A DNA stretch of 64,000 nt from Dehalococcoidia bacterium. Its GTDB lineage: Bacteria; Chloroflexota; Dehalococcoidia; Lucifugimonadales; VXLM01. Below the pieces are notes generated by a model. That model was not told where the DNA came from. It made no database searches and worked only from the letters and a program-made list of their open reading frames with translations. Below are positions 32,285-46,250 of this stretch, piece by piece (within the stretch, counting starts at the first letter, position 1; each line of letters begins with the position of its first letter). The stretch lies in assembly GCA_965219245.1 (NCBI GenBank), contig OZ244722.1, positions 1,785,212 to 1,849,211 of the forward strand. The letters run 5' to 3'. The position numbers and the translations under genes are program-made.

Positions 32285-35200
32285 GTGCCCGATTCTCCCG
32301 TCATCAACGATTCTCCCGCCGGCCAATCTGGATGGCGTGGTGAGCCGACGGGATTGTTCCGTCGACCTGACCGTTCTTCGCAGGCGTTTATGTCGTCCGT
32401 ACGAAGCATCGATTTGTCCCAAGCGTCGGACGCGGAGCTTCGCGCCCGCGCAGATAGGCTGAAGCATCGCACACTGGATGAGGATACTCTGGCCGAGTGT
32501 TTTGCCGTCATCGACGAGACAATCAGACGGCGAATCGGCGCATGGCAGGTCTTCGACCCAGGTTTCGAGCACGCGGACATTGACAGATATAGAGACCTGG
32601 CCCGTAACCTCACTGGAATTGACAAGCTGATCGCGGATACCCTTGCCTACGTGGCCGAAGAGAGTACCTCGCGATACTTCGCCGACATCGATCTCCCAGC
32701 ACCGTTCTACCTCGCAGTACGAGAATCAACCCTCTTCGACGTACTACGTTTCGAGCCGACGGACGAGCAGATAGCGGCGGGCCGGCTGATGCTCGACCGC
32801 ACCGTCGTCGAGATGGACGCTGGCGAGGGCAAGACCGTCGCTGCCGCCTTCCCCGCCATCACGCAGGCGCTGTCCGCGCGCAAGGTGCATGTCATTACAG
32901 CGAACGATTACCTCGCCCTGCGCGATGCCGAGTTGCTGGCGCCTGCATACGAGTTCCTGGGCCTTACGGTCGGCGCCGTGCTGAGTCACATGAGCGACGC
33001 CGAACGTCGAAGCGCCTACCGGCGTGACATCGTCTATGGCACGCTGCGGGAGATCGGTTTCGACTACCTGCGCGACAACCTGCGCCACTCGCGGGTTGAC
33101 ATGGTGCATGGACCCATCGAGGTCGCCATCGTGGACGAGGCCGACCATGCCCTCGTCGACGATGGCCGCACGCCGCTCATCATCTCCGGGAAGCCGGGCG
33201 GGAGCGTCAGGTCGGTCTTCCGGGTGAAGCAAGCAGTCGAAGGGCTGATCGAAGAACAGCGGGACATCGTCGTGTCGCTCGTCGACAATCTCACGGAGGT
33301 GAAGGGGACGCCGCGCCTAGATCGGTACGCCAAGCTACTGCTCGCCGACCCTCGAAACGCCGCATTCGTCTCCGCCGCCGCGCGCGACGAACGATTATTG
33401 AGCCGCGTTCGAGCCGTAATCGACACGTACTCCGAGGACGGCATCGAAAACAAGCTCACCGAGGGGCTGCTCTACACGACCGACCCCAGTCGCGGTCTCG
33501 TCGCGCTTACGGCGGAAGGCAGCGCCTACGTCGAAGGCCGCCTCGGCCCCGTCTTCGACACTGCCGACCTCCACGCCGAGCTTGCCGAGATTGAGTCCGA
33601 CCGGTCCGTGCCGCTTGCGGAACGGAGACGACTCAGAGAGGCCGTCTCTAAGCGAATAGCACGGCAGTACGGCACCGCAAACCAGGTACACCAGATGCTC
33701 AGGGCCTACCTGTTGCTGACTCGTGACGAGGACTACATCGTTGCGGACGGACGCGTCGTATTGATCGACGATCTGACCGGCCGCCGCAAGTCGGACAGCA
33801 AGTACCAATACGGCCTGCAGGCCGCGCTCGAGGCTAAGGAGGGCGTCCGGGTGCGTCCGGATCCCCAAACACTCGCGTACCTGACGGTCGAGGGACTCGT
33901 CCGGCAGTACGTCCATGTATCGGGAATGACGGGGACGGCGTTGGAGGCCCGCGAGACGTTCCGCAGGTCGTACGGTCTCGACGCCGCGCGAGTTGAGCCT
34001 GCCAACCCTTCCCGCCGAGTCGACCGTCCGCCGAGGGTCTATGCCACGCGGAGCGAGAAGCTCGACGCGATCGTGGAAGAAGTGGCGTACTGGAACCGCA
34101 TTGGCCGTCCGGTGCTCGTCGGAACGCGAACGGTCGAGCAGTCGGAAGAGATCAGCCGGCTCCTCACCGAGGCGCAGGTCGCCCACAACAGGTTGGACGC
34201 CGTGAGGAACGGCGATGAGGCCCGGATCGTCCAAAAAGCCGGTTCATTCGGCGCGGTGACCGTCGCGACCAATATGGCCGGCCGCGGCACCGATATCCTG
34301 CTGGACGACGACCTCGACGAACGAGTAACCGGCCGGTTCATCCGAATGCTCAGCGAACGCCACAGTACAGAGCGACACCCCGTTCGCGTGGACTGCGGCC
34401 ATGCAGATGTCGTTGAAGATCTTGCCGCTCGGCTTACCGATTTGGGACTCCCTTTTCACGTCACGGAATCCGCCCTCGTGATCGAGGGAACCGGCAGCGA
34501 GACATCAATGGAATTCGGTCTCGGCCTCCACGTGATCGGCACGGAGATGAACGAGGCCGCCCGCGTCGACCGTCAACTCCGGGGTCGGAGCGGCCGGCAG
34601 GGCCAGCACGGCTCGTCCCGGTTCGTCCTGTCGCAGGAAGACCGCCCCTTCATCACGTCGAGCCGCAGGCTGTCGAGTCCCGACGCGGAGGACGCGCAGG
34701 GGTTCGTCGAGAAGGTGCAGTCGTCCATTGAGCAGGACGCCGATGCTATACGCATCGTCTCGTACGACCTCGCCCGGATCATCGAGCGCCAGACCCTGAA
34801 CTACTACAAGGCCCGCAACGCCGTGCTCGACGACGATTCGTTCCACGAAACATGCTGTGACATGGCGCGGGATGTCGTTCGCCGCCTGGTTGAACGCCTG
34901 TTTCCGCCCTCGGAGATGGGTGATTACACGACGCGGTTCGACGACGTAGCGGAGTCCGTTCGGCTCGACTTCGAGATAGACATGGAGGATCTATACGGCT
35001 TGGGGGCCGAGTCGCTGCATGAAGAGATTTACGAGGCCGTTATCACACGATTCGGTGATGCGGAGGCCGTGCTGAGTACAAGAAAATACAATCGGTTGGC
35101 CAAGACGATTGCCTTACAGGTGAGCGACGGGCTTTGGGCGCAGCACCTAAACCTCGTGCAGGACTTGATCGTAAACGCGCAGTTGTCCATGTCAGGGCAT

Positions 35201-35371
35201 AACAGTGTGGTGGCCGAGCTTGTCTTTCGGGCCGAAGATGCGTACCGTACATTTATGGAGCAGGCGGCAGATACGTTCATCTCTCGATTGGCGATGTTCG
35301 AGGCCGACGAGGAGGTGGGCGATGATGACTCGATCGTGCTTGCAGATGACGTAGGGGCTATACTTGTGTAA
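32285..35371 (+). CDS. Divergent SecA-like ATPase (DEAD motor, preprotein-binding-like and helical domains; no zinc-binding tail)
   Basis: 1028 aa. MDAGEGKT, HVITANDYLALRD, FLGLTVG, VYGTLREIGFDYLRDN, VDEADHALVDDGRTPLIISG, YIVADGRVVLIDDLTGR, YQYGLQAALEAKEGV, SGMTGTA, VLVGTRTVEQSE, ATNMAGRGTDI and HVIGTEMNEAARVDRQLRGRSGRQG all align to canonical SecA motifs but with many substitutions and extra insertions. GTG 32285 has GAGGAG upstream. Confidence 0.8.
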   Translation: MPDSPVINDSPAGQSGWRGEPTGLFRRPDRSSQAFMSSVRSIDLSQASDAELRARADRLKHRTLDEDTLAECFAVIDETIRRRIGAWQVFDPGFEHADIDRYRDLARNLTGIDKLIADTLAYVAEESTSRYFADIDLPAPFYLAVRESTLFDVLRFEPTDEQIAAGRLMLDRTVVEMDAGEGKTVAAAFPAITQALSARKVHVITANDYLALRDAELLAPAYEFLGLTVGAVLSHMSDAERRSAYRRDIVYGTLREIGFDYLRDNLRHSRVDMVHGPIEVAIVDEADHALVDDGRTPLIISGKPGGSVRSVFRVKQAVEGLIEEQRDIVVSLVDNLTEVKGTPRLDRYAKLLLADPRNAAFVSAAARDERLLSRVRAVIDTYSEDGIENKLTEGLLYTTDPSRGLVALTAEGSAYVEGRLGPVFDTADLHAELAEIESDRSVPLAERRRLREAVSKRIARQYGTANQVHQMLRAYLLLTRDEDYIVADGRVVLIDDLTGRRKSDSKYQYGLQAALEAKEGVRVRPDPQTLAYLTVEGLVRQYVHVSGMTGTALEARETFRRSYGLDAARVEPANPSRRVDRPPRVYATRSEKLDAIVEEVAYWNRIGRPVLVGTRTVEQSEEISRLLTEAQVAHNRLDAVRNGDEARIVQKAGSFGAVTVATNMAGRGTDILLDDDLDERVTGRFIRMLSERHSTERHPVRVDCGHADVVEDLAARLTDLGLPFHVTESALVIEGTGSETSMEFGLGLHVIGTEMNEAARVDRQLRGRSGRQGQHGSSRFVLSQEDRPFITSSRRLSSPDAEDAQGFVEKVQSSIEQDADAIRIVSYDLARIIERQTLNYYKARNAVLDDDSFHETCCDMARDVVRRLVERLFPPSEMGDYTTRFDDVAESVRLDFEIDMEDLYGLGAESLHEEIYEAVITRFGDAEAVLSTRKYNRLAKTIALQVSDGLWAQHLNLVQDLIVNAQLSMSGHNSVVAELVFRAEDAYRTFMEQAADTFISRLAMFEADEEVGDDDSIVLADDVGAILV

Positions 35372-35401: not shown

Positions 35402-36220
35402 ATGACTACCCGATGGCGAAAGCTGGGAATCCGAGCGACGGCAGGACTAGCGGTTGCGGCCGCGCCGGTTGCGGCGGCTTGCGGTTCAGGGCCGTCCTAC
35501 GAGGACTGGGCCGAAACGGACGGCGCTGCAGGTCGTATCAACCTCGAGGACGTGCAGAACGCATTCCAGGAGTCCGAGAGCGTTACCGAATTCGAGAAGC
35601 GCGTCAACGAGATATTCGAGGGAGACGGCATTGTCCTCATCAAGGCCGAGCAGACCGACACGGCATTCGTCCTCGAAGGGTGGGAAAACCTGGACGGCAA
35701 CATAAGGATAGACGAGGGGACGGACGAGAAGCTCTTCACCATCACGGAGAAAGATGACAAGAGCCACGAAATGCGAGGCCACCACGCCAACTCCTACTAC
35801 CATTCATCGTTTGGAGCCGGCAACTTCCTGTTTACCTACTTGCTCCTGTCTTCCTTCGCCGGTCCGCGCTACGTGTACGCTACCCCGGCGTCTCGCGTAG
35901 GCACTATACGCAACGAACGGGGCCTCTACCGCAATTCAAGCGGCTACAAAAGCCAGGTCTCGAAGAACGGCTCGTACTTCAACAAGCAGAAGAGCTTTGC
36001 CGGTTCGAGCTACGACTCTGCAAACCGGAATCGCAGCAGCGCCAGGCAGTCCTACCAGTCACGCGCTCGCTCGACAGGCGCTTTCAGGAACAGCGGGACT
36101 GGAGTTCGCAGCAGCTGGGGAACGTCATCGCGTTCAGGCTTCTCTAGCGGCCGCAGCGGCGGTTTCTTCGGTGGGGGTGGCGGACAAACCTTCCTCGGCT
36201 CCACCCGACGCCGCGGTTGA
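35402..36220 (+). CDS. Lipoprotein of unknown function with Ser/Arg/Gly-rich tail
   Basis: AGGAGG SD. Lipobox signal LAVAAAPVAAACGSG, an acidic globular part, then a low-complexity S/R/G-rich C-terminus ending FFGGGGGQ. Confidence 0.65.
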   Translation: MTTRWRKLGIRATAGLAVAAAPVAAACGSGPSYEDWAETDGAAGRINLEDVQNAFQESESVTEFEKRVNEIFEGDGIVLIKAEQTDTAFVLEGWENLDGNIRIDEGTDEKLFTITEKDDKSHEMRGHHANSYYHSSFGAGNFLFTYLLLSSFAGPRYVYATPASRVGTIRNERGLYRNSSGYKSQVSKNGSYFNKQKSFAGSSYDSANRNRSSARQSYQSRARSTGAFRNSGTGVRSSWGTSSRSGFSSGRSGGFFGGGGGQTFLGSTRRRG

Positions 36221-37314
36221 GGCACTTGCCGGACGAAGGGCCGAAATACGCAAAACCACCAGTCTCTCCAGTCGGCCCGTGGAGCGCATCCTCCCTTTCC
36301 GCCGCTGACTCCGAGTTCGTCCTGCAAATCACCCTGGGCGAGATGCCCATCGAGGACGGATTCTGGATAGGCCTGCCTGACGACCTCTCGCGTCTGTCGC
36401 TTCGAGAACTGTTTAGCCGGGTGTTCCCGGGTGACCCCTCTCTCCAACAACTCTTCCTAGAGCGACTCGACATTAGCGGAAATCCAGACCTCCCCGACAT
36501 GTATGAGGCCCTGATCGACATCTTCGTGAAAGAACAGCTGGGACTGTGCGCCGTCGACACCTACGTGAACCACGGCCCGAAGCTCGACGACTCGGCAGCC
36601 ATAGACCAGCGCCTGAACAAGAACGACACCCCGCCTGTGCTCGACCTCGTACTGGAGCAGCGATTCTCGGCCATCGACTACGCCGTGCGGCGCGGGGACT
36701 TCGCCGATCAAGAGGATGCGCTGGCGTGGATGCGTTCGCGAGTGCTGCTGTACTTCCTCGACACGCCCGACTATGCCCTGCTTAGCGATCCTGTCGACGA
36801 TGCCGACGCGGCACTGCTGCCCATAGCACAGACCCTCGTCGAAGAGGGTCTTATCGAACGACCCGCCAAGCCCGGGCCGTTCGAGATCACCGAGTTGGGA
36901 CACGAGACGCTTCACGAAATGACGGCAGAGGTCGAAAACGTGCTCGAACGTTACGAGGTGTTCGGGGACGTTCTCTACGACCCAGAGACGGGCGAATGCG
37001 TCTTTGGCACGGGCGCAGGCATCGATCTTCGCATACCCGTCTACGAAGCGGAGGACCTAAGCCCCGTGCGCGCCGTCCTGCTCGTCGAACTATGCGACGG
37101 CGAACTCGCCCAAATGACCGACGACTGGCGCACCGCCATCCACGACCGCGAGTTCTTCGATGCGCTGCTCCTGCCCGTAGTCGAGCGCCCTCTAGTCGAC
37201 TCGGAGCACCTAGACGCCATCATCGACGCCGGGTTCGAGTTCATGGAGCGGCAGGCCCGCCAAGCATCCCTCGCCGACGAAGACGCCCAACTGCGCCGCT
37301 CCATCGACCTTTAG
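36217..37314 (+). CDS. Hypothetical acidic protein (possible winged-helix segment)
   Basis: Long ORF with coding-like composition. EEGLIERPAKPGPFEITELGHETL resembles a wHTH wing. Start uncertain: TTG 36217 overlaps the upstream stop, with ATG 36343 as the alternative. Confidence 0.55.
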   Translation: MRHLPDEGPKYAKPPVSPVGPWSASSLSAADSEFVLQITLGEMPIEDGFWIGLPDDLSRLSLRELFSRVFPGDPSLQQLFLERLDISGNPDLPDMYEALIDIFVKEQLGLCAVDTYVNHGPKLDDSAAIDQRLNKNDTPPVLDLVLEQRFSAIDYAVRRGDFADQEDALAWMRSRVLLYFLDTPDYALLSDPVDDADAALLPIAQTLVEEGLIERPAKPGPFEITELGHETLHEMTAEVENVLERYEVFGDVLYDPETGECVFGTGAGIDLRIPVYEAEDLSPVRAVLLVELCDGELAQMTDDWRTAIHDREFFDALLLPVVERPLVDSEHLDAIIDAGFEFMERQARQASLADEDAQLRRSIDL

Positions 37315-37392: not shown

Positions 37393-37752
37393 TCAGATGT
37401 GGAGGACTTGGAGTTTGTCCACAAGCTCTTCGACGTCTCGCAGGCCGTCTTCGACCGCGTCCCGCGTCATCCAGCCCTCGTAGAAGTTCTGGTGGAGAGA
37501 GTTGGCGGAGCGGAATAGGTTGCGCAGGCGCCGGTCCCCGGTCTCGTCGGCCAGGCGGTCGATTGCCGTGTACAGTTGGCGGTGGCCGTCGTGCGACCAG
37601 CCGCGGTGCTCGGCAACGGCCTTGACCGTCTGGGCGGCGGCGCCCCAGCCCTTCTCGGAAGCCTGGAGAAGATCGCCGTCGGCCAGGTAGTCGCCAGCCT
37701 TTGCCATGAAGTGCCGGGCCGTGGTGGTGTGGTATTCGGTGCGAGTGGTCAT
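37393..37752 (-). CDS. PaREP1-like (HEPN-related) helical protein
   Basis: 119 aa. LLQASEKGWGAAAQTVKAVAEHRGW...SANSLHQNFYEGW matches the ASEK.WGA ... LH.NFYE pattern of the archaeal PaREP1 family as I recall it. Confidence 0.5.
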   Translation of the reverse strand: MTTRTEYHTTTARHFMAKAGDYLADGDLLQASEKGWGAAAQTVKAVAEHRGWSHDGHRQLYTAIDRLADETGDRRLRNLFRSANSLHQNFYEGWMTRDAVEDGLRDVEELVDKLQVLHI

Positions 37753-37838: not shown

Positions 37839-38762
37839 CTAGATCGCAAAGAAGAGCACCAGCGACGCGCTGAGGACGATTGCGCCCACGACGAACGCCA
37901 TGCCGACGTTGCGCGCGCCGGCAAGCTCGTCCGCGATCGTCACCTTGGGGAACATCGCCTTGTCGATGACCCACTGGACGACCAGCAGGAGGACGAACCC
38001 GATCACCGCGAACGTAGCGAACGAGATGAGGCTCTCGCTCCACCCGACGAACTCGCCCGTCACCGCCTTGAAGATCACTATCGCGATGGCGATCAGGTTG
38101 GCCGCCATCGCAACGCCGACGGCGACGTTGTTCTTCTCGATCTCATCGTGGATATCGTAGGCAGTGATGACTTGATAAAAGAGCGCGTACAGGACAAGCA
38201 CTCCCATACCCAACAGGAAGAAAGCGACGGAGCGGATGAGTTCATCGAGGACGCCTGGGGCCACGGCTCCAAGCGGGGTGGCGTCGTATCCCGCCAGCGA
38301 TGAAGCAATGACGAGGGCCACTGCTATGTAGACCGCCATCTCGACGGCGCCGCTCCCGGCGTTCTGGTCTTCGATGACCTCCTTCTCGACGCTGAACTTG
38401 AAGAGCACGAGGCGGTCGACCAGGAACCGGGTCAAGTTCAGAACCGCTATGGCCCCCAGTGAGTAGAGGAAGACTTCCAGAACGTCGTACCCGAAGTCGG
38501 CATTGAACTGCCATTCATACTCGCCCCCTGCCGTGAACGGCGTGTATAACACCGCGACGAAGACGATGATGACTCCAAGGAAATATCCCGCGATACTCAG
38601 GCCGAGAGCATTATTGCTCTTCTCGCCAAGCTGGTCGCCAACGTGATATGGAGTGACGAAGTCGAGTATCCACTTGGCGATGTACAGCACGACTATCCCC
38701 AGCGCAACGTACACCAGCCCGCGCGGAAAGTATTCGAGCGTCTCAATGAACGTGTCAATCAT
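37839..38762 (-). CDS. Integral membrane protein with repeated DUF350 domains
   Basis: 307 aa, about 8 TM. Three or four repeats of the pattern (V/I)T.(Y/F)(D/H)..(D/E)(I/L)...N.A.(G/A) (VTPYHVGDQLGEKSNNALGL; ITAYDIHDEIEKNNVAVGV; KVTIADELAGARNVGMAF). Confidence 0.7.
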   Translation of the reverse strand: MIDTFIETLEYFPRGLVYVALGIVVLYIAKWILDFVTPYHVGDQLGEKSNNALGLSIAGYFLGVIIVFVAVLYTPFTAGGEYEWQFNADFGYDVLEVFLYSLGAIAVLNLTRFLVDRLVLFKFSVEKEVIEDQNAGSGAVEMAVYIAVALVIASSLAGYDATPLGAVAPGVLDELIRSVAFFLLGMGVLVLYALFYQVITAYDIHDEIEKNNVAVGVAMAANLIAIAIVIFKAVTGEFVGWSESLISFATFAVIGFVLLLVVQWVIDKAMFPKVTIADELAGARNVGMAFVVGAIVLSASLVLFFAI

Positions 38763-38796
38763 GTTCTTTCTCCCTCAGAACGGCCGGCGATGCCGG

Positions 38797-39369
38797 TTAC
38801 TGCTTGTACACGGTAATGCTGTCCGGTGATACCACGCTGCTGAAGTAGCACTCGTACGGGCGGTCACCGAATTTGTCGATGGACAGGATCGTGCGCTCGT
38901 CCGAGCTCATTAAGTCCCACGTATAGTACCCGATCCCGTCTCCCTGGCCACCCTCGAAGAGAAAGGCCTCTCCGCTGTTGAGATAGTAGAAGTCCCGACC
39001 ATCATACGTGAAGTAGTTGCTCAGGGAGTGCTCCTCGTCGACCTGAGTAAGGTCGTCTCGCGTGAGGTTGAGCGCTTCGAGCGGTATCGGCTCGTTGTCG
39101 TTGGTGACAGAGGTGAAGAGCTGCCCGCCGTCGTTCGACCAGTAGACCCACAGCCTGCGGTCGCCGTCGCCCGCAACCAACTCGTACCACGTGCTGTAGC
39201 TGGTCGCGTACCGGTGCTTTGCCTCGATGAGATAGTAGCCGTCGTCGTACTCCAAGTCGAAACCCATGATGGTGAACACGTCCCCGACAACCGCGTCCCT
39301 GACGCCCTCGGCAAGAGAGGTAGCGCCGGTGAGCTTCTTCTTCTTTCGCCCGAACAGCGACTTTATCAC
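38797..39369 (-). CDS. DUF4178 domain protein
   Basis: Start refined to GTG 39369 (GGAAGGAG 5 nt upstream). GDVFTIMGFDLEYDDGYYLIEAKHRY...WYELVAGDGDRRLWVYW and a second similar half fit the DUF4178 pattern. Confidence 0.6.
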   Translation of the reverse strand: MIKSLFGRKKKKLTGATSLAEGVRDAVVGDVFTIMGFDLEYDDGYYLIEAKHRYATSYSTWYELVAGDGDRRLWVYWSNDGGQLFTSVTNDNEPIPLEALNLTRDDLTQVDEEHSLSNYFTYDGRDFYYLNSGEAFLFEGGQGDGIGYYTWDLMSSDERTILSIDKFGDRPYECYFSSVVSPDSITVYKQ

Positions 39370-39468
39370 GCCTACTCCTTCCCGCCGAGTGCCATTGTAG
39401 ATTCGGGCCAAACTAAGGTCAACCAACCAACTGTTGACGCTACCCCCGTTCCCTGCTACCGTCCCGCC

Positions 39469-40611
39469 ATGTTGGAAACATCCCTACAAAACAAACCGCC
39501 AGCCCACGCCACCCTCACGGCCCCGCAGACGCCGTCATTCGTCTGTCACGTCGACGACCTCAAATGCACGGCGGCGCGCATACGAGAAGCCGCTCGCAAC
39601 GCCGATTGCACCCTCCTCTACTCGGTCAAAGCCAACGCACTCCCCGGAGTTCTGTCCGCCATCACCCCCTTCATCGACGGCTTCGGCGTCAGCTCGCTGG
39701 CCGAGGCGCGAGCCGCCCGAACGGCCCTCGGAGACTCCGGCAGGCTCCATCTCTGCACGGTCGCCGTCCCGCCTCCCGACGCCCAAGAGTTGGCGGACAT
39801 CTGCGACTACGTGACCTTCAACTCGCTCTCCCAGCTTCAGCGGTGGGGCCCCACCTTCACCGGACGCGCCTCGATCGGCCTGCGCGTAAACCCCGGACAC
39901 TCCTTCCTCGACGACCACAGATACGACCCATGCCGCCCTCACACCAAGCTGGGCGTTCCCCTCGACGACCTCGCCGCCTCAGCCGACCGTATTGCCCCAC
40001 TGATCGACGGCCTCCACATCCACTCCAACTGCGACTCAACCAACCTCGGCGAGCTGCTCGAGACCATCCAAGTCCTCGACTCTCGCCTTGGGCATGTCCT
40101 GTCGCAGGTCAAATGGGTCAATCTCGGAGGCGGCTACCTGTTCGACGAAGGAGCGAACCTCGATCCCCTAAGGGAAGCCGCAAGTCTCCTTCGTGACCGA
40201 CACGGCGCGGAGGTCATCATCGAGCCGGGAGCGGCCTTCGTGCGCGACAGCGGCTTCCTTGTGACGTCCGTGCTCGACCTGTTCGAGAGCGACGGCAAGG
40301 AAGTGGCCGTTCTGGACACGACCGTCAACCACATGCCGGAGGTCTTCGAGTACCAGTTCCGCCCCGACGTCCTCGGCCACCGCGACACGGGAGCGCATGA
40401 GTACGTCCTGGCCGGCATGTCTTGCTTGGCGGGTGACATCTTCGGCGACTATCGCTTCGATGATCCGCTGGAGTTCGGATCGCGCATCATATTCTCAAAC
40501 GCCGGGGCATACACTATCGTCAAGGCGAACACCTTCAACGGCATCCCTCTGCCCACCATCTACGAGTTGCGAGACGACGGGAGTTTCGTCGAGATGGCGG
40601 TGGCGTCGTGA
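39469..40611 (+). CDS. nspC: Carboxynorspermidine/carboxyspermidine decarboxylase
   Basis: Start refined to ATG 39469; the upstream part of track ORF 39028.. overlaps the divergent gene. LYSVKAN, FNSLSQL, LRVNPGHS...YDPCRPHTKLGV, GLHIHSNCDS, VNLGGGY, IIEPGAAF, AGMSCLAGDIFGDY and YTIVKANTFNGIPLP follow the NspC/CANSDC family. Confidence 0.85.
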   Translation: MLETSLQNKPPAHATLTAPQTPSFVCHVDDLKCTAARIREAARNADCTLLYSVKANALPGVLSAITPFIDGFGVSSLAEARAARTALGDSGRLHLCTVAVPPPDAQELADICDYVTFNSLSQLQRWGPTFTGRASIGLRVNPGHSFLDDHRYDPCRPHTKLGVPLDDLAASADRIAPLIDGLHIHSNCDSTNLGELLETIQVLDSRLGHVLSQVKWVNLGGGYLFDEGANLDPLREAASLLRDRHGAEVIIEPGAAFVRDSGFLVTSVLDLFESDGKEVAVLDTTVNHMPEVFEYQFRPDVLGHRDTGAHEYVLAGMSCLAGDIFGDYRFDDPLEFGSRIIFSNAGAYTIVKANTFNGIPLPTIYELRDDGSFVEMAVAS

Positions 40612-41996
40612 GGCTGTTCGAGCGCGAGCTTACCCAGACAGCGACGGACGGGCGTATCGGAACGCTCGAAGACATCCGGCGCATGATCGACGGACAACTC
40701 GACACCAATCAGATGCCGATACGTTTCGCCGTCACCGAGTCCTCTCCACACTCCTACCACTACGAGATCGGCATTCTCGAAGGGACAGGGTCTTTCGTCC
40801 CCTCCATGTTCGACCTCCATCCTCGACTCGACGAAAACGTGAGTTCCTTCAACGCGGTGCTCGTCGTGCCAACGGGCATCGGAGCGGAGATCGGCGGTCA
40901 CGCCGGTGACGCGACGCCCGTCGCGCGACTGCTGGCCTCCGTGTGCGACACGCTTATCACGCACCCGAACGTCGTCAACGCCTCAGACCTGAACGAGATC
41001 CCGGACAACGGCCTCTACGTCGAGGGCAGCCTCCTGAGCCGCTTTCTTACGGGCGCCATCGGCCTGAGACCCGTCCGATCAAACCGCGTCCTCGTCATCA
41101 TCGACGCCCACCCCAACGAGCGGTTCGCGCGCGCAACGGTCAACGCCGTCAACGCCGCGCGGGCGACCTATGGACTCCGATGCCCCCGTGTCGTCGTCCT
41201 AGATCCCCCGCTGCCGGTACGCGGCGAGTACACGCCGTCCGGACGCACAGCAGGGACCGTCGAGGACTTGGAACGGGTCTTCGAGGTGCTCGACACCCAC
41301 CGGGGCGAGTACGACGCCGTCGCCCTCTCAACCCTCGTCGACGTCGACGTGCCCCACGAGAGCTACTTCTCCTCGAGGGGCGAGATCGTCAACCCCTGGG
41401 GCGGCGTCGAGGCCATGCTCACCCACGCGATATCAACCCTCTACAACGTGCCGTCCGCCCACGCGCCGATGATGGAGTCGGTCGAGATCGCAAACATCGA
41501 CCCCGGCGTCGTCGACCCCCGCATGGCCGCTGAGGTCATCTCACTCACCTTCCTCCAGTCCGTCCTCAAGGGCTTGCACACCGCGCCGCGAATCGCCGTT
41601 GGCCCCACCGAAACAGCCAGTCTCTCCCCAGCCGGGGGAGAGATACAGAGAGGGGGCCACACCCTCACGGCGAGAGACGTATCCTGCCTCGTTATCCCCG
41701 ACGGCTGCATCGGGCTGCCGACTCTGGCCGCGCTCGAACAGGGCATACCGGTTATCGCCGTCCGCGAGAACCGGAGCCTGATGAGAAACGACCTCACACT
41801 ACTGCCCTGGTCCGACGACCAGCTGCACGTCGTCGAAAACTACTGGGAGGCCGCGGGGGTGATGGCAGCGCTGAAGGAGGGCATGTCGCCTGGCTCCGTG
41901 CGCCGACCTCTGCGCGATGTGCCCATCGAACGCACCCCCACGACCGAACGGTCCAGAGTCGGTCTTCCAACCCCGCCCGGCGGCGTAGAGCAATGA
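40608..41996 (+). CDS. Uncharacterised conserved protein (possibly DUF3326-like), translationally coupled to nspC
   Basis: GTGA overlap with the nspC stop. Gly-rich motif VLVVPTGIGAEIGGHAGDATPVARLLA. The family assignment is from memory only. Carries an in-frame repeat insertion at 41621..41668. Confidence 0.6.
   Translation: MRLFERELTQTATDGRIGTLEDIRRMIDGQLDTNQMPIRFAVTESSPHSYHYEIGILEGTGSFVPSMFDLHPRLDENVSSFNAVLVVPTGIGAEIGGHAGDATPVARLLASVCDTLITHPNVVNASDLNEIPDNGLYVEGSLLSRFLTGAIGLRPVRSNRVLVIIDAHPNERFARATVNAVNAARATYGLRCPRVVVLDPPLPVRGEYTPSGRTAGTVEDLERVFEVLDTHRGEYDAVALSTLVDVDVPHESYFSSRGEIVNPWGGVEAMLTHAISTLYNVPSAHAPMMESVEIANIDPGVVDPRMAAEVISLTFLQSVLKGLHTAPRIAVGPTETASLSPAGGEIQRGGHTLTARDVSCLVIPDGCIGLPTLAALEQGIPVIAVRENRSLMRNDLTLLPWSDDQLHVVENYWEAAGVMAALKEGMSPGSVRRPLRDVPIERTPTTERSRVGLPTPPGGVEQ
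41621..41668 (+). repeat. Palindromic repeat element inside a CDS (translated LSPAGGEIQRGGHTLT)
   Basis: tctctccccagccgggggagaga tacagagaggggg ccacaccctcac. The same hairpin plus tacagagaggggg occurs at 43211..43251, 43825..43866, 52978..53016 and 53190..53228. Confidence 0.8.
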
Positions 41997-42022
41997 CCAC
42001 CGCGCTCCGCGACACGCGGCTA

Positions 42023-42145
42023 CTAGTACTCAGTCAACTTGAATATGACGAACATCCAGGTGCCGATTTATCCCCTCTCCCGTCGTGGGAGAGGGCTAGG
42101 GTGAGGGTGAAACGTAATATCAAAACCATGTTGACATGGTACTAG
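42023..42145. mobile_element. MITE (CTAGTACTCAGTC ... TGTTGACATGGTACTAG)
   Basis: 123 bp, CTAG-bounded, near-identical to 53902..54024. Confidence 0.7.
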
Positions 42146-42285
42146 TACCGTTCCCATTTGAATATGACAGTCGAATAGAGAGGTCGTATCCCCTCTCCCG
42201 TCGTGGGAGAGAGCCTGCCCCGTACTCGATACGGGGGTGAGGGTGTTTCGAGTAAGCTACCAAAATCATTTGGAACAGGCACTAG
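42142..42285. mobile_element. MITE (CTAGTACCGTTCCC ... TTTGGAACAGGCACTAG)
   Basis: Homologous to 27322..27466. Shares CTAG junctions with both neighbours. Confidence 0.7.
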
Positions 42286-42443
42286 TTTCCTGTGTCAGAG
42301 ATTCTTCGAACATATCAGCGCGTGAAAATCCCCTCTCCCGTCGTGGGAGAGAGCCTGCCCCGTACTCCCATACGGGGGTGAGGGCGGCTCCCCGGAACAC
42401 ACCCATCCAATGTATACAATGAACTTCAGAAACAGGACACTGG
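42282..42443. mobile_element. MITE (CTAGTTTCCTGTGTCAGAG ... AACAGGACACTGG)
   Basis: Homologous to 2037..2203. The right terminus is mutated (CTGG). Contains the ATGs at 42410 and 42419 used by the downstream ORF. Confidence 0.65.
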
Positions 42444-44329
42444 AACGGCCAGATTCGACCACCGGTCAACAGCTAGGTGCCGCCCTCCAATACGCCTACT
42501 CGACCTTTTCGACCTACCGTGACCTGTTCGAGGGAGCCGGAGTCGGACTAGACGCGCTTGTCAAGGACGACCCGCTTGCCGTCCTCGAACGGCTGCCGGT
42601 CATCGCCGCCGACACACTTGCGAGGGTGAGCGAAGAGAGCCTCTCGGTCGTCGACGGCATCGTGGACATGGAGACCTCATCCGGCACCACAGGCGTCCGA
42701 AAGAAACGCTTCATCTCCTACGAAGACGACCAAGACGACCACGCCTTCATGGCCGAGCTGTTTCGACTGGCGGGCATCAACGAGCACGACCGCGTGGCCT
42801 GCCTCGATACCGACCCCGTCTACCTGATGGTCTCATTCGCCCGCGCCCTCGATATCCTCGGCGTAGACGAATCATATGTCTACTCCGTAGGCCGCGATCA
42901 GGGCCAGACGCTCGATGCATTGGTGCGACTCGACCCCACCGCGATCTTCGCCGTGCCGTCCATGTTCGAGCGGTGCTGGCCCGCACTCCGCCGGCTCTAC
43001 GACCAAGCAGGACGCGGCAGCCTGAGCAAGGTCGTCTTCCTCGGCGAGCGAGTCCCCCGCCGGCTGAGAGCGCAGTTGGAGTCCGAGCATGGCGTCGAGG
43101 TCTTCAGCTACTACGGCGCAGCCGAGACCTCGTCACTCGGCATCGAATGTACGGCCCACACAGGCATCCACCTCTACACCGACCGCAACCTATTCGAACT
43201 GACCAACACCAATCGTCTCTCCCCCGCCGGGGGAGAGATACAGAGAGGGGGGCGTGAGGTCACCAACAGCCCCCTCTCCCTTGAAGGAGAGGGCCTGCCC
43301 CGTACTCGATACGGAGGTGAGGGTGATCATACCCCCTCTCCCGTCGTGGGAGAGGGTTGGGGTGAGGGTGACCATGCCCCCTCTCCCGTCGTGGGAGAGG
43401 GCTGGGGTGAGGGTGACCATACCCCCTCTCCCGTCGTGGGAGAGGGCTGGGGTGAGGGTGACCATACCCCCTCTCCCGTCGTGGGAGAGGGTTGGGGTGA
43501 GGGTGACCATACTACCCCCTCTCCCGTCGTGGGAGAGAGCTGGGGTGAGGGTGAGACAGCCCCCACCGGAGAAGAGATGCAGACAGGCGCGCTCGCAGAT
43601 ACCAACAATCTCTCCCCCACCGGAGAAGAGATGCAGACAGGCGCGCGCGCAGATACCAACAATCTCTCCCCCACCGGAGAAGAGATGCAGACAGGCGCGC
43701 TCGCAGATACCAACAATCTCTCCCCCACCGGAGAAGAGATGCAGACAGGCGCGCGCGCAGATACCAACAATCTCTCCCCCACCGGAGAAGAGATACAGAC
43801 AGGCGCGCGCGCAGACACCAACAATCTCTCCCCCGCCGGAGAAGAGATACAGAGAGGGGGGCTCGTCGTCACAAGCCTCCTGCAGAAGACCGTCCCCCTC
43901 GTGCGATACTCCCTCGGCGACGAGATAGTCCTGCTCCCCGGCGACTGCCCGTGCGGCCTACCGCACCCGCGAGTCGACGTGCTCGGTCGAGCAGGGGACA
44001 GCTTCGCCATTCTCGGCTCCACGTTCCACTACGACTCGTTCCTGCGCTCGGTCTACAAGAACCTCGACGAGGTCGGCTACATGCAGGTCGTCCTCACGAC
44101 CGAGGCTCAAGATGTCCTCACGGTCCTCCTCCCCGCCGAGATGCACCCCCACGAAAAGCGCATGAAGGACTCGCTCCTCTCCGACCAGCTCGAATTGGAG
44201 TTCCTCCTCACCAGCAAGCTCGCGTCCCTGCGGTTCGACTACGTAGACGAGTCCTACTTCACCGGCTCCCGGAAGATGAAGCTGGTCGATGACCGGAGAC
44301 AAAAGGAGGCAACTGTTCAGACTTCGTGA
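42410..44329 (+). CDS. PaaK / coenzyme F390 synthetase-type adenylate-forming ligase carrying about 650 bp of in-frame repeats (function possibly compromised)
   Basis: N-domain motifs ETSSGTTGVRKK (P-loop), YYGAAETSS and HLYTD. C-terminal GLVVTSLLQKTVPLVRYSLGDEI...CPCGLPHPRVDVLGRAGD. The start lies in a MITE and the stop in another MITE TIR. Repeats occupy 43211..43866. Confidence 0.6.
   Translation: MYTMNFRNRTLERPDSTTGQQLGAALQYAYSTFSTYRDLFEGAGVGLDALVKDDPLAVLERLPVIAADTLARVSEESLSVVDGIVDMETSSGTTGVRKKRFISYEDDQDDHAFMAELFRLAGINEHDRVACLDTDPVYLMVSFARALDILGVDESYVYSVGRDQGQTLDALVRLDPTAIFAVPSMFERCWPALRRLYDQAGRGSLSKVVFLGERVPRRLRAQLESEHGVEVFSYYGAAETSSLGIECTAHTGIHLYTDRNLFELTNTNRLSPAGGEIQRGGREVTNSPLSLEGEGLPRTRYGGEGDHTPSPVVGEGWGEGDHAPSPVVGEGWGEGDHTPSPVVGEGWGEGDHTPSPVVGEGWGEGDHTTPSPVVGESWGEGETAPTGEEMQTGALADTNNLSPTGEEMQTGARADTNNLSPTGEEMQTGALADTNNLSPTGEEMQTGARADTNNLSPTGEEIQTGARADTNNLSPAGEEIQRGGLVVTSLLQKTVPLVRYSLGDEIVLLPGDCPCGLPHPRVDVLGRAGDSFAILGSTFHYDSFLRSVYKNLDEVGYMQVVLTTEAQDVLTVLLPAEMHPHEKRMKDSLLSDQLELEFLLTSKLASLRFDYVDESYFTGSRKMKLVDDRRQKEATVQTS
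43329..43559 (+). repeat. Tandem array, 5 units of 45 bp (one of 48), inside the ligase CDS
   Basis: Unit ccccctctcccgtcgtgggagagggctggggtgagggtgaccata, starting at 43332, 43377, 43422, 43467 and 43515. Translated PSPVVGEGWGEGDHT. This is the MITE hairpin core. Confidence 0.9.
43556..43866 (+). repeat. Tandem array, about 5.7 units of 54 bp, inside the ligase CDS
   Basis: Unit tctctcccccaccggagaagagatgcagacaggcgcgc(t/g)cgcagataccaacaa, starting at 43609, 43663, 43717, 43771 and 43825. Translated LSPTGEEMQTGA(L/R)ADTNN. Confidence 0.9.
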
Positions 44330-44600: not shown

Positions 44601-45113
44601 ATGCAGGTCTTCTTCATCGCGCTCGCCATCCTCAGCGGAGCGGGAATCTCCATGCAGGCTGCCATGCTCGGCGCGGTAGGCACGGCGCGCACCCCCGCGG
44701 CCGCCGTGTGGATATCCCTGCTCGCAACGGTCGTCGGCCTCACCGCATTCGTAATCTACCGCTCCGCCACCTCGTCCATCGGCCTTCCCCCACCGTTCGA
44801 CCGCCCTTACATCATGATCGCCTTCGCAATCGCCGCAACCGTCGCGCTGGCCTTCTCCGCACGGGACATCGAGTGGTACTACGTCCTCACCGGCCTGATG
44901 CCGATCCCATTCCTCGTCGGCGCGGGATTCCTCGCCCCCCGCCTCGGAGTCGGACTCTTCATCTCCGCCGCCATCGCCGGACAGCTCACCGCCGCCGTCC
45001 TGCTCGACCACATCGGCGCTTTCGGCGGCAACCTCATACGCGCCGACTACATCCGCCTACTCGGCATCGCCGCCCTCATGACCGGCGTCGTCCTCATCCG
45101 CGGCTTCAACTAA
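44601..45113 (+). CDS. DMT-superfamily membrane protein (DUF606/YdcZ-like)
   Basis: 170 aa, 5 TM. ILSGAGISMQAAMLG and AAIAGQLTAAVLLDHIGAFG match the YdcZ family pattern. Confidence 0.75.
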   Translation: MQVFFIALAILSGAGISMQAAMLGAVGTARTPAAAVWISLLATVVGLTAFVIYRSATSSIGLPPPFDRPYIMIAFAIAATVALAFSARDIEWYYVLTGLMPIPFLVGAGFLAPRLGVGLFISAAIAGQLTAAVLLDHIGAFGGNLIRADYIRLLGIAALMTGVVLIRGFN

Positions 45114-45428
45114 TACCAATTCGCTTTGACTACGCCATAAATCATTAATACATACCGGAACCCCGCCGTCATTTGATCCCCTCTCCCGTCGTGGGAGAGG
45201 GCTAGGGTGAGGGTCCGCAAGGCATGCAAGCGAGATTACGGCCTCGTCACGCCAAATTGGTATAACGTCAGCGCGGATTGCCATACGGACGGAAGACGCG
45301 GAAACGACGGAAAAGCGAGAGTTCAAGGGAATCGTGTACGATATCTCTGTGCTGTCGTGCGAGGATGTCGCTTCCACTTACGCGCGATTCGTGCGTCAGG
45401 GGACTGGCATGAAGAAAGGACGAATGAA

Positions 45429-45851
45429 ATGAACAATCATAGGCCGGTTCGGTGGATGGTGTCCTTTTGGCATCCGGATGGCGACAGCAAAGAAGAGCCT
45501 GACTTCCCGAAGGTAAAGCATTGGCATTCCGATAAACAAACCGCCAGAGTTGAGGCTGCGCGGGTGCTGATCGAGTTACGGGAGAGTCGTGGCGATGTCC
45601 GTGACTGGGTCGCGGCCGGTCACCCCGACCCTTTGGAAGTCGGCGCAGGCCGTCATGTCGGAGGGCAGTGGATTCTCCGCTATGGGGACTTGGAGAAGCG
45701 CGACGCCACATCGAGGCTGACGGCGGAAGAAAGGCTCAAAGGGACGAAATCGGCCGCTGGTTCTTGGAAAGGTCTCATCGACGGAGAGGAACTAAAGACA
45801 ACCCTCCATGAAGCCCGTCACTCCGGCTCCCTCGTCGGTCCGGATCAGTAG
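45429..45851 (+). CDS. VapB-like antitoxin with an unusual ~95-aa N-terminal extension
   Basis: Start refined to ATG 45429. The C-terminus LTAEERLKGTKSAAGSWKGLIDGEELKTTLHEAR resembles antitoxin tails paired with PIN toxins. Ends 3 nt before vapC. Confidence 0.55.
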   Translation: MNNHRPVRWMVSFWHPDGDSKEEPDFPKVKHWHSDKQTARVEAARVLIELRESRGDVRDWVAAGHPDPLEVGAGRHVGGQWILRYGDLEKRDATSRLTAEERLKGTKSAAGSWKGLIDGEELKTTLHEARHSGSLVGPDQ

Positions 45852-45854
45852 CGG

Positions 45855-46250
45855 ATGCGGTACTTGGCCGACACCAATTGGGTCATCGATTACATGAATG
45901 GCATACCCCAAGTCGTCGGGCGATTCGACGAGCTATTGCCGCAGGGGATCGGTCTGAGCATCATTTCGCTTGCCGAGCTCTACGATGGCGTGTACGGTGC
46001 TGCGAATCCCCAGAGTGCTGAACTGGGACTGCAAAGATTTCTCGATGGTCTCGATGAAATAGTGCCACTCGAAGAACCGGTCTGTCGGATTTTCGCCATG
46101 GAGCGTGTCAGATTGCGAACGGCCGGAAACCGCATTGAAGACCTTGACCTCCTGATAGGCTCAACTGCAATACATCACGGACTTACACTGCTCACCAACA
46201 ACCGCAGGCACTTTGAGAGAATGCAGGGCCTGAGCCTAATCTCGGCATGA
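45855..46250 (+). CDS. vapC: PIN-domain ribonuclease toxin VapC
   Basis: MRYLADTNWVIDY (first acidic D), SIISLAELYDG, DLLIGSTAIHHGLTLLTNNRRHF. Classic VapC layout. Confidence 0.88.
   Translation: MRYLADTNWVIDYMNGIPQVVGRFDELLPQGIGLSIISLAELYDGVYGAANPQSAELGLQRFLDGLDEIVPLEEPVCRIFAMERVRLRTAGNRIEDLDLLIGSTAIHHGLTLLTNNRRHFERMQGLSLISA

Follow-up and report, generated by a model that had tools for sequence, protein, structure and literature searches.

A DUF3326 protein beside an NspC-like decarboxylase: a candidate two-enzyme route to polyamine-type amines in Dehalococcoidia and other phyla

Introduction

To our knowledge, polyamine backbones are built by only a few types of enzyme, namely the aminopropyltransferases, the dehydrogenases of the carboxynorspermidine or carboxyspermidine type (CANSDH and CASDH), and the homospermidine and deoxyhypusine synthases. 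Here we describe a pair of overlapping genes, one encoding a decarboxylase related to NspC and the other a protein of the DUF3326 family, in a 64,000-nucleotide stretch of a Dehalococcoidia genome (GenBank assembly GCA_965219245.1, contig OZ244722.1, positions 1,785,212 to 1,849,211), hereafter the window. We consider whether this pair may represent a route to a polyamine-type amine that dispenses with a dehydrogenase of that type.

Several described systems provide points of reference. Members of the carboxyspermidine and carboxynorspermidine decarboxylase family (CASDC and CANSDC) are described in the literature as acting on N-substituted carboxyaminopropyl amines. In the enzyme from Clostridium leptum (ClCASDC) the active site comprises Lys43, His170, Cys173, Glu237, Gly239, Cys306 and Tyr335, while Asp276 of the specificity helix binds the terminal amine (PMC11866407). 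The pairing of a DUF3326 protein with a CANSDC-like enzyme has genetic precedent in one preprint, of June 2026, on pavettamine, and pairs of this kind have otherwise barely been described (bioRxiv 10.64898/2026.06.12.731819). In that study N-(5-aminopentyl)cadaverine, a triamine, was seen only where PavA, which combines a Rieske and a CANSDC-like domain, and PavB, a DUF3326 protein, were both present; cadaverine was present in all strains, and pavABC of B. pseudomallei gave triamine intermediates when expressed in E. coli (bioRxiv 10.64898/2026.06.12.731819). Two types of DUF350-containing membrane module have, in addition, been tied to polyamine enzymes by comparative genomics (PMC11237479).

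Results

The NspC-like gene occupies 39469–40611 on the forward strand (ATG at 39469, stop codon at 40609–40611) and encodes 380 residues. The DUF3326 gene follows on the same strand at 40608–41996, its GTG start at 40608 overlapping the preceding stop by 4 bp as GTGA, and encodes 462 residues. A first-pass annotation, made from the sequence without database searches, had given these coordinates and the overlap, both of which were verified on the sequence, and its gene placements were all confirmed by open reading frame (ORF) listing and profile scans of the window. The start at 40608 is supported by homologues in other phyla, whose alignment to the protein begins at its first residue (MRLFERE, MRLYEKE, MRLTERQ). 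The same annotation had quoted a glycine-rich motif in the 462-residue protein, VVPTGIGAEIGGHAGDA, which is present as quoted, and had guessed at DUF3326 as the family, a guess borne out by a PF11805 score of 319 bits against a gathering cut-off of 25.

The pairing of the two genes is real and far beyond chance. With an alignment of 18 DUF3326 sequences we gathered the closest 80 of at least 578 loci, drawn from Dehalococcoidia/SAR202, Alphaproteobacteria, Planctomycetota, Fidelibacterota, Nitrospinota, Acidobacteriota, Binatota, Bacteroidota, Gemmatimonadota, Actinomycetota and SAR324, and counted their neighbours by tblastn. A decarboxylase of one of two types adjoins the DUF3326 gene in 75 of the 80. 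In 44 it is an NspC-like gene lying within 800 bp on the same strand and mostly overlapping; in 31 it is a small gene of the AdoMet_dc family (SpeD-like, PF02675) located 5–89 bp upstream, in which the pyruvoyl (self-processing) serine and the catalytic cysteine are kept. No locus carries both and five carry neither, and the genomes of four of these five, when searched, each proved to hold an NspC-like gene elsewhere. The first-pass annotation had raised the question of whether the family co-occurs with nspC in other genomes, and it does so by adjacency, by presence in 28 of the 28 DUF3326 genomes tested that are not of the SpeD type, and by fusion, since proteins P0277 and P0279 consist of an NspC-like part followed by DUF3326, in the same order as in the window. 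The alternative partner is likewise found fused, as a SpeD-like part followed by DUF3326 (P0124). A set of 300 Chloroflexota genomes, drawn evenly, told nothing about co-occurrence: one other genome carried DUF3326 and none an NspC-like gene at E ≤ 1e-40.

On a quick SH-aLRT tree of DUF3326 the partner type changes 8 times, at least three of these changes being forced by starred branches, and changes take place within single phyla, including Fidelibacterota and Planctomycetota. Beside the same DUF3326, therefore, two unrelated decarboxylases stand in for each other. The family also occurs without a decarboxylase, both within a nonribosomal peptide synthetase (NRPS) cluster of another Chloroflexota genome (L008:9753-11078) and in a single protein that runs from DUF3326 through an adenylation domain to a carrier domain (P0280), settings that fit an amino-acid product. 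Separately, P0278 joins DUF3326 to an NNMT-type methyltransferase and a SET domain, and P0282 carries DUF3326 as a domain of a plant U-box protein. Together with the short form described below, this plant protein shows that the family is not confined to decarboxylase partners.

The NspC-like protein matches PF02784 and PF00278, the domains of pyridoxal 5'-phosphate (PLP)-dependent decarboxylases with an alanine-racemase fold. On TIGR01047, the equivalog model for NspC, it scores 258 bits and does not reach the cut-off of 409; none of the homologues in 28 other DUF3326 genomes reaches it either (0 of 28; 234–297 bits). The four best solved relatives are all CASDCs or CANSDCs (176–251 bits), the best being ClCASDC (9EAF, 251 bits), as against at most 68 bits for diaminopimelate (DAP) decarboxylases and 30 bits for a lysine/ornithine decarboxylase. 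Alignment to 9EAF indicates that the active-site residues are kept as the PLP lysine Lys54, the stacking His185, Cys188, Glu252 and Gly254 of the Glu-Pro-Gly segment, Cys319, Asp323 and the phosphate Tyr348; 32 DUF3326-linked homologues show no variation at Lys54, His185, Glu252, Gly254, Cys319 or Tyr348 and almost none at Cys188. The specificity-helix Asp276 of ClCASDC corresponds to Glu291, which is itself invariant in the 32 homologues. Because the active site is kept and Glu291 is invariant, the protein is an active-looking CASDC/CANSDC member of a distinct, DUF3326-linked subfamily. With an acidic residue at position 291, recognition of a distal amine is still plausible, although the preferred chain length may differ.

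The DUF3326 family comprises 1,196 cluster representatives at 50% identity (E ≤ 0.001) and exists in a long form of about 440–460 residues and a short form of about 330–345 residues without the N-terminal domain. The window protein is of the long form, in which some 80 residues make up an additional domain at the N terminus. In 60 diverse members the motifs PTG..GG..GD, HPN..N, NPWGG.E and AH.P are invariant or near-invariant, and the invariant residues include Thr89, Asp101, His119, Asn121, Glu268, His285 and Glu309. A Pfam and NCBIfam scan of the window protein gave no match besides PF11805, and none for the saccharopine-dehydrogenase domains Sacchrp_dh_NADP and Sacchrp_dh_C. The AlphaFold2 model (predicted local distance difference test, pLDDT, 93.5; predicted template-modelling score, pTM, 0.92) consists of a small N-terminal β-α-β domain followed by two Rossmann-like α/β domains, in one of which the glycine-rich motif lies between the first strand and the first helix.

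Comparisons of this model with known structures remained close to background. Foldseek found nothing significant in the PDB (best E 6e-4, TM-score 0.23), and the highest Z that VIA-align reached over 48,161 chains was 10.0, for GT-B glycosyltransferases, which is near the background of the tool and picks out no fold family. Lumazine synthase, LOG/MCP-like and LacI-type domains followed at Z 8–9.6, again near background given a typical best Z of 7–8. The saccharopine-reductase-type fold was represented solely by 1E5L, at background level (Z 8.0, root-mean-square deviation 9.2 Å). A shape search of the ESM Atlas returned the DUF3326 cluster alone (TM-score 0.93), the sole match in a profile search of PDB sequences was a spurious one to L23, a protein-atlas feature search that disregarded PF11805 yielded no usable match, and tblastn against 50,697 phage records found no match. 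Neither by sequence nor by fold did the protein match a characterised enzyme family; a match to an unrelated one is what the first-pass annotation had named as counting against its reading. SAM (S-adenosylmethionine)-dependent transfer of a 3-amino-3-carboxypropyl group was considered as the chemistry of DUF3326; the present results argue neither way on it, and it would not yield the C5 units of the PavAB product. A complex prediction for the NspC-like and DUF3326 proteins, with two alignments as input, scored 0.00 and gave no verdict, a result that counts neither for nor against binding.

The genome is a single closed contig of 4,415,595 bp, estimated as 95.8% complete, and holds one NspC-like and one DUF3326 gene. 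When the whole genome was searched, neither Sacchrp_dh_C (the CANSDH and homospermidine synthase type) nor Spermine_synth PF01564 (SpeE) nor DS (SpeY and deoxyhypusine synthase) found a match. Three weak matches to Sacchrp_dh_NADP are TrkA, a short-chain dehydrogenase/reductase (SDR) and a HIBADH-type protein. The first-pass annotation had pointed to a canonical CANSDH elsewhere in the genome as evidence that would speak against it, and on these results none was found. Across the DUF3326 genomes, Sacchrp_dh_C is above cut-off in only 3 of 32, and the two clear matches are in SpeD-type genomes. Outside the window, at G000:C1:2315445-2316732, a SpeD-like gene lies directly beside an agmatinase gene (246 bits, above cut-off), the SpeD-like product scoring 63.6 bits, below the S-adenosylmethionine decarboxylase (AdoMetDC) cut-off of 75.65. 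This arrangement has been described for pyruvoyl arginine decarboxylases (PMC10407285), from which a supply of putrescine is plausible, and the pair is a probable pyruvoyl arginine decarboxylase route to that diamine. An IS630-family transposase gene adjoins it. For a longer polyamine (triamine), this genome and the clade of the window offer no candidate route other than the NspC-like/DUF3326 pair.

Upstream of the pair lies a set of genes with an envelope character. A divergent paralogue of SecA, whose DEAD-like domain holds a large insertion (32285–35371, forward strand; SecA domain matches, 250 bits as against 404 bits for the canonical SecA encoded elsewhere in the genome), is followed by a predicted lipoprotein (35402–36220, forward), whose signal peptide ends in ...VAAAC and whose tail is rich in Ser, Gly and Arg, and by an acidic, conserved protein of 365 residues without a Pfam match (36217–37314, forward). 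On the reverse strand, and divergent from the NspC-like gene as the first-pass annotation had it, are a double-DUF350 (YjfL-type) membrane protein of about eight transmembrane (TM) helices (37839–38762; PF03994, 177 bits over two stretches) and a DUF4178 protein (38797–39426; PF13785, 42.6 bits). DUF4178 probably starts near 39375 and not as far upstream as 39426, and a promoter-like site at 39422–39394 falls inside the 5' extension of this ORF.

The block of SecA paralogue, lipoprotein, 365-residue protein, DUF350 and DUF4178 is kept as a unit in about 30 of the 80 loci, usually within 10 kb of the cassette. Taken singly, the SecA paralogue (cluster c1) adjoins the cassette in 33 loci, the lipoprotein is found in 31, the 365-residue protein in 30 (always beside the lipoprotein and DUF350), a DUF350 gene within 10 kb of DUF3326 in 32, and DUF4178 together with DUF350 in 28. 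All loci with the block are Dehalococcoidia or unclassified, and its linkage to the cassette could be a matter of shared descent. In 14 of the 80 loci, all alphaproteobacterial, a SpeD-like/DUF3326 cassette comes directly after a DUF350-DUF1190-GSP_synth operon. The first-pass annotation had named DUF4178 and DUF350 as frequent neighbours of polyamine genes, and the link is indeed published (PMC11237479). Given that study and the alphaproteobacterial loci, the cassette probably provides an amine for some function tied to the envelope.

Downstream of the pair, a 413-bp intergenic gap (41997–42409) contains three copies of a hairpin repeat resembling miniature inverted-repeat transposable elements or repetitive extragenic palindromes, CCCCTCTCCC-GTCGT-GGGAGAGGG, found by repeat search; 21 copies lie in the window, where none would be expected, and 101 exact copies in the genome. 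The adenylate-forming ligase gene beyond the gap (42410–44329, forward strand) matches PF00501 and NF045666 below cut-off. Its scores on the NCBIfam models are 104 bits against a cut-off of 300 on the best model (DVU_1553), 46.9 against 646 on TIGR02155 and 71.9 against 700 on NF041878, by which it is classed as a PaaK-like ANL enzyme and not as PaaK itself. The first-pass annotation, which had read this part as mobile repeats followed by a PaaK-type ligase, was therefore right about the repeats and the order, but the enzyme is PaaK-like only and is interrupted by repeats. An in-frame insertion of about 650 bp at approximately 43208–43860, made up of 5.2 hairpin units of 45 bp and then 5.5 units of 54 bp, lengthens the protein to 639 residues, as against 426 in relatives, and the ORF stays open. 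Residues 9–268 and 483–634 are 76% and 84% identical to a 426-residue relative, with about 215 extra residues between them. Because this repeat expansion splits the protein, the function of the ligase in this genome is doubtful. The DUF3326 gene has an insert of its own: an in-frame segment of 11 residues, SLSPAGGEIQRGG (41613–41696), comes from a second dispersed repeat, of which the genome has 30 exact copies. The segment sits in a variable loop of low model confidence and is common in part to the close relatives P0005 and P0008. The ligase adjoins DUF3326 in 16 of the 80 loci and in L007, and the gene after it, for a YdcZ-type membrane protein of the drug/metabolite transporter (DMT) kind that is a possible exporter (44601–45113, forward; PF04657, 67.6 bits), follows the ligase in 10 of the 80, all close kin.

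Other genes nearby include an ORF of 119 residues of the PaREP1/PaREP8 family (37393–37752, reverse strand; 83 bits), an archaeal family found here in a bacterial genome, between the envelope block and DUF350. Beyond the exporter-like gene lie an ORF of 214 residues without a family match in the profile scan (45207–45851), which would be long for a VapB antitoxin, and, following it, a VapC-type PIN toxin gene (45855–46250, forward; 80 bits on a VapC model, below its cut-off). Genes of clusters c7 and c12 lie within about 2 kb of the cassette and on the same strand in 11 of the 80 loci (L021, L022, L025, L027, L029, L039, L056, L067, L068, L076 and L077), two with an NspC-type and nine with a SpeD-type cassette. 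The members tested (L021, L025 and L029) match PtuA and PtuB of the Septu anti-phage system in PADLOC at E 1e-44 to 1e-58, and the scanned part of the window showed no such genes.

Discussion

We propose, as a reading that we consider somewhat more probable than not, that the NspC-like and DUF3326 proteins work as a two-enzyme cassette for a polyamine-type amine in which neither a CANSDH nor a CASDH takes part, DUF3326 making a carboxy-polyamine and the decarboxylase finishing it. Putrescine would come from the SpeD-like pyruvoyl decarboxylase and agmatinase encoded elsewhere in the genome. DUF3326 would then join an amine to a unit derived from an amino acid, giving an N-alkylated α-amino acid such as carboxyspermidine or a homologue, and the CASDC-family decarboxylase, judging by its membership of that family and its intact active site, would strip the α-carboxylate to leave the polyamine. 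From the conserved context, the product would probably serve the envelope module of SecA paralogue, lipoprotein, DUF350 and DUF4178, and in relatives the PaaK-like ligase, which repeats disrupt in the window genome, may acylate it as well. The order of the two steps is favoured because the DUF3326 product looks like an amino acid and the partner is of the CASDC family; that the product is most simply an α-amino acid follows from its being open either to decarboxylation or to adenylation. PavB, furthermore, is the natural candidate for the condensation step in pavettamine synthesis, since the triamine needs both PavA and PavB while cadaverine is always present. The first-pass annotation had offered two readings, a replacement of the dehydrogenase step and a pathway that modifies or conjugates a polyamine. 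These are not exclusive and the data fit both, a substitute for the dehydrogenase and a polyamine that is conjugated afterwards. Gene linkage supports the interpretation, and the biochemical step of DUF3326 is inferred.

More tentatively, and with rather less confidence than in the cassette itself, the whole family may be conceived as a new class of enzyme forming C–N bonds in polyamine backbones by way of N-alkylated diamino acids, unrelated to the saccharopine-dehydrogenase-type CANSDH, to SpeE and to the deoxyhypusine and homospermidine synthases. Its products would be decarboxylated by NspC-like or SpeD-like enzymes or activated by adenylating enzymes and NRPSs, and the resulting amines would be wired to envelope modules (DUF350/DUF4178/SecA-like or YjfLMC) and elsewhere to Septu operons.

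The steps might also run in the opposite order, with the NspC-like or SpeD-like enzyme first making a diamine from a basic amino acid and DUF3326 then condensing or transferring aminoalkyl groups between amines in the manner of homospermidine or deoxyhypusine synthase, or modifying the amine in some other way. Both decarboxylase families include decarboxylases of basic amino acids, many SpeD homologues have become decarboxylases of arginine or ornithine (PMC10407285), PavAB yields a symmetric triamine, which is the C5 homologue of homospermidine, and the fusions and adjacency are compatible with either order. We nevertheless regard this scheme as unlikely, because the NspC-like protein is far closer to CASDCs and CANSDCs (251 bits) than to lysine/ornithine or DAP decarboxylases (30–68 bits), and the genome already has a separate SpeD-like and agmatinase pair for putrescine. 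In the preprint, too, cadaverine was present in all strains, yet the triamine was not seen without PavA, and DUF3326 in NRPS settings and in the adenylation–carrier fusion, where a decarboxylase is lacking, would be hard to explain were its substrate a decarboxylated amine.

Less probable still is that DUF3326 forms no C–N bond and instead prepares or tailors an amino acid, as a racemase, epimerase, isomerase or side-chain-tailoring enzyme, which is then decarboxylated or adenylated to give an unusual mono- or diamine. The two α/β lobes with a cleft between them bear a weak likeness to folds of the Asp/Glu/hydantoin racemase and periplasmic-binding types (allantoin racemase at Z 8.0, with glutamate racemase and arylmalonate decarboxylase in the Foldseek list), tailored amino acids are common in the NRPS settings in which DUF3326 is found, and a nucleotide-cofactor motif could not be asserted. 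These racemase-type matches, however, lie at the background of a typical best Z of 7–8, while the triamine signal depended on PavA as well as on PavB, E. coli expression gave triamine intermediates and the pavABC operon offers no other candidate for the condensation; the links to ligases resembling glutathionylspermidine (GSP) synthetase and to DUF350 modules likewise point to polyamines. Least likely of all, in our view, is that the cassette is in decay here: repeats would have inactivated the ligase and perhaps DUF3326, and this genome would make no product, whatever the family does in others. Copies of the hairpin repeat are concentrated at this locus, an in-frame repeat expansion of about 650 bp lies in the ligase, and the DUF3326 protein carries its 11-residue repeat-derived insert. 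Against this, all ORFs are open, the insert occupies a variable, low-confidence loop that is partly common to P0005 and P0008, every invariant residue of the NspC-like and DUF3326 proteins is kept, and no other route to a triamine was matched in the genome.

Several points weigh against the proposal that DUF3326 makes a carboxy-polyamine for decarboxylation. We know of no report of an AdoMetDC-family enzyme that decarboxylates a carboxy-polyamine. The neofunctionalised members reported act on arginine or ornithine, which fits a decarboxylase-first order (PMC10407285). The role of DUF3326 in forming a C–N bond is a putative one; its modelled fold is generic, no informative solved relatives were found, and a site for NAD(P)H or SAM cannot be asserted. 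The PavAB evidence comes from a preprint without enzymology and consists of mass-spectrometric signals in cells (bioRxiv 10.64898/2026.06.12.731819), and in cyanobacteria the short form of DUF3326 adjoins the ferredoxin gene fed3 and not polyamine genes (PMC4284462). The 80 loci, moreover, are close relatives, all at least 54% identical to the query. Finally, SpeE is found in 26 of 32 other DUF3326 genomes, only the nearest relatives of the window being without it, so that the cassette is not needed for bulk spermidine in SpeE-bearing genomes and its product may be something else. Since these genomes keep SpeE, the pair is better seen as a dedicated extra route than simply as the housekeeping pathway to spermidine.

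If DUF3326 does act as proposed, it would constitute a fourth, unrelated family of backbone-building enzymes, and the polyamine capacity of bacteria would have to be read differently from their genomes. This would be most relevant to the abundant uncultured ocean lineages in which the cassette is common, such as SAR202/Dehalococcoidia, Marinimicrobia, marine Alphaproteobacteria, Nitrospinota and Planctomycetota. A Pfam domain of unknown function that counts some 1,200 clusters at 50% identity, and extends to cyanobacteria and to one plant protein or more, would also gain a function. With two unrelated decarboxylases changing places beside one DUF3326, and with adenylation domains fused to it, the hypothesis lends itself to a direct test.

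One close parallel is with the pathway of CANSDH or CASDH followed by CANSDC or CASDC, as represented by the decarboxylases of C. leptum (9EAF) and C. jejuni (3N29). The window decarboxylase belongs to the same alanine-racemase-fold PLP enzymes, with 251 bits to 9EAF and the catalytic residues kept, and the proposed logic, in which a carboxy-polyamine is made first and then decarboxylated, would be shared. The differences lie in the partner, the genome giving no match for a saccharopine-dehydrogenase-type protein and DUF3326 standing in that slot, and in the decarboxylase itself, which scores 258 bits against the NspC cut-off of 409 and has Glu in place of Asp276 of ClCASDC. In pavABC of Burkholderia sensu lato a DUF3326 protein (PavB) again stands beside a CANSDC-like decarboxylase domain, the C terminus of PavA. 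However, the window enzyme is a stand-alone protein of 380 residues without a Rieske match, the neighbouring genes scanned in the window have no match to JmjC (PavC) or cupin proteins, a hydroxylated product is not expected, and the host is a Chloroflexota of the class Dehalococcoidia, with an envelope module as context.

Among the pyruvoyl arginine and ornithine decarboxylases derived from SpeD (PMC10407285), the stand-alone SpeD-like protein of the genome resembles the SpeDA type in lying by an agmatinase and scoring below the AdoMetDC cut-off. The DUF3326-linked SpeD-like proteins are also divergent AdoMetDC homologues not paired with SpeE, but they are far more divergent (22–32 bits on TIGR03330), and the residue that precedes the processing Ser is Thr or Gln instead of Glu. 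The surroundings of the window cassette recall the DUF350/lipoprotein/DUF4178 operons (mSystems 2024, PMC11237479), with which they share an eight-TM DUF350 protein, DUF4178 and a lipoprotein beside a polyamine-making function, the predicted lipoprotein fitting the slot of the 'novel lipoprotein' in those operons. There the synthase is SpeE-like and fused to a 7TM domain, whereas the window genome has no PF01564 match and carries the NspC-like and DUF3326 pair instead, and the block in the window is headed by a divergent SecA paralogue. The YjfL-YjfM-YjfC operons with AdoMetDC, in which DUF350 and DUF1190 proteins accompany a GSP-synthetase-like ligase (PMC11237479), have their counterpart in 14 of the 80 loci, all alphaproteobacterial and of the SpeD-like/DUF3326 type.

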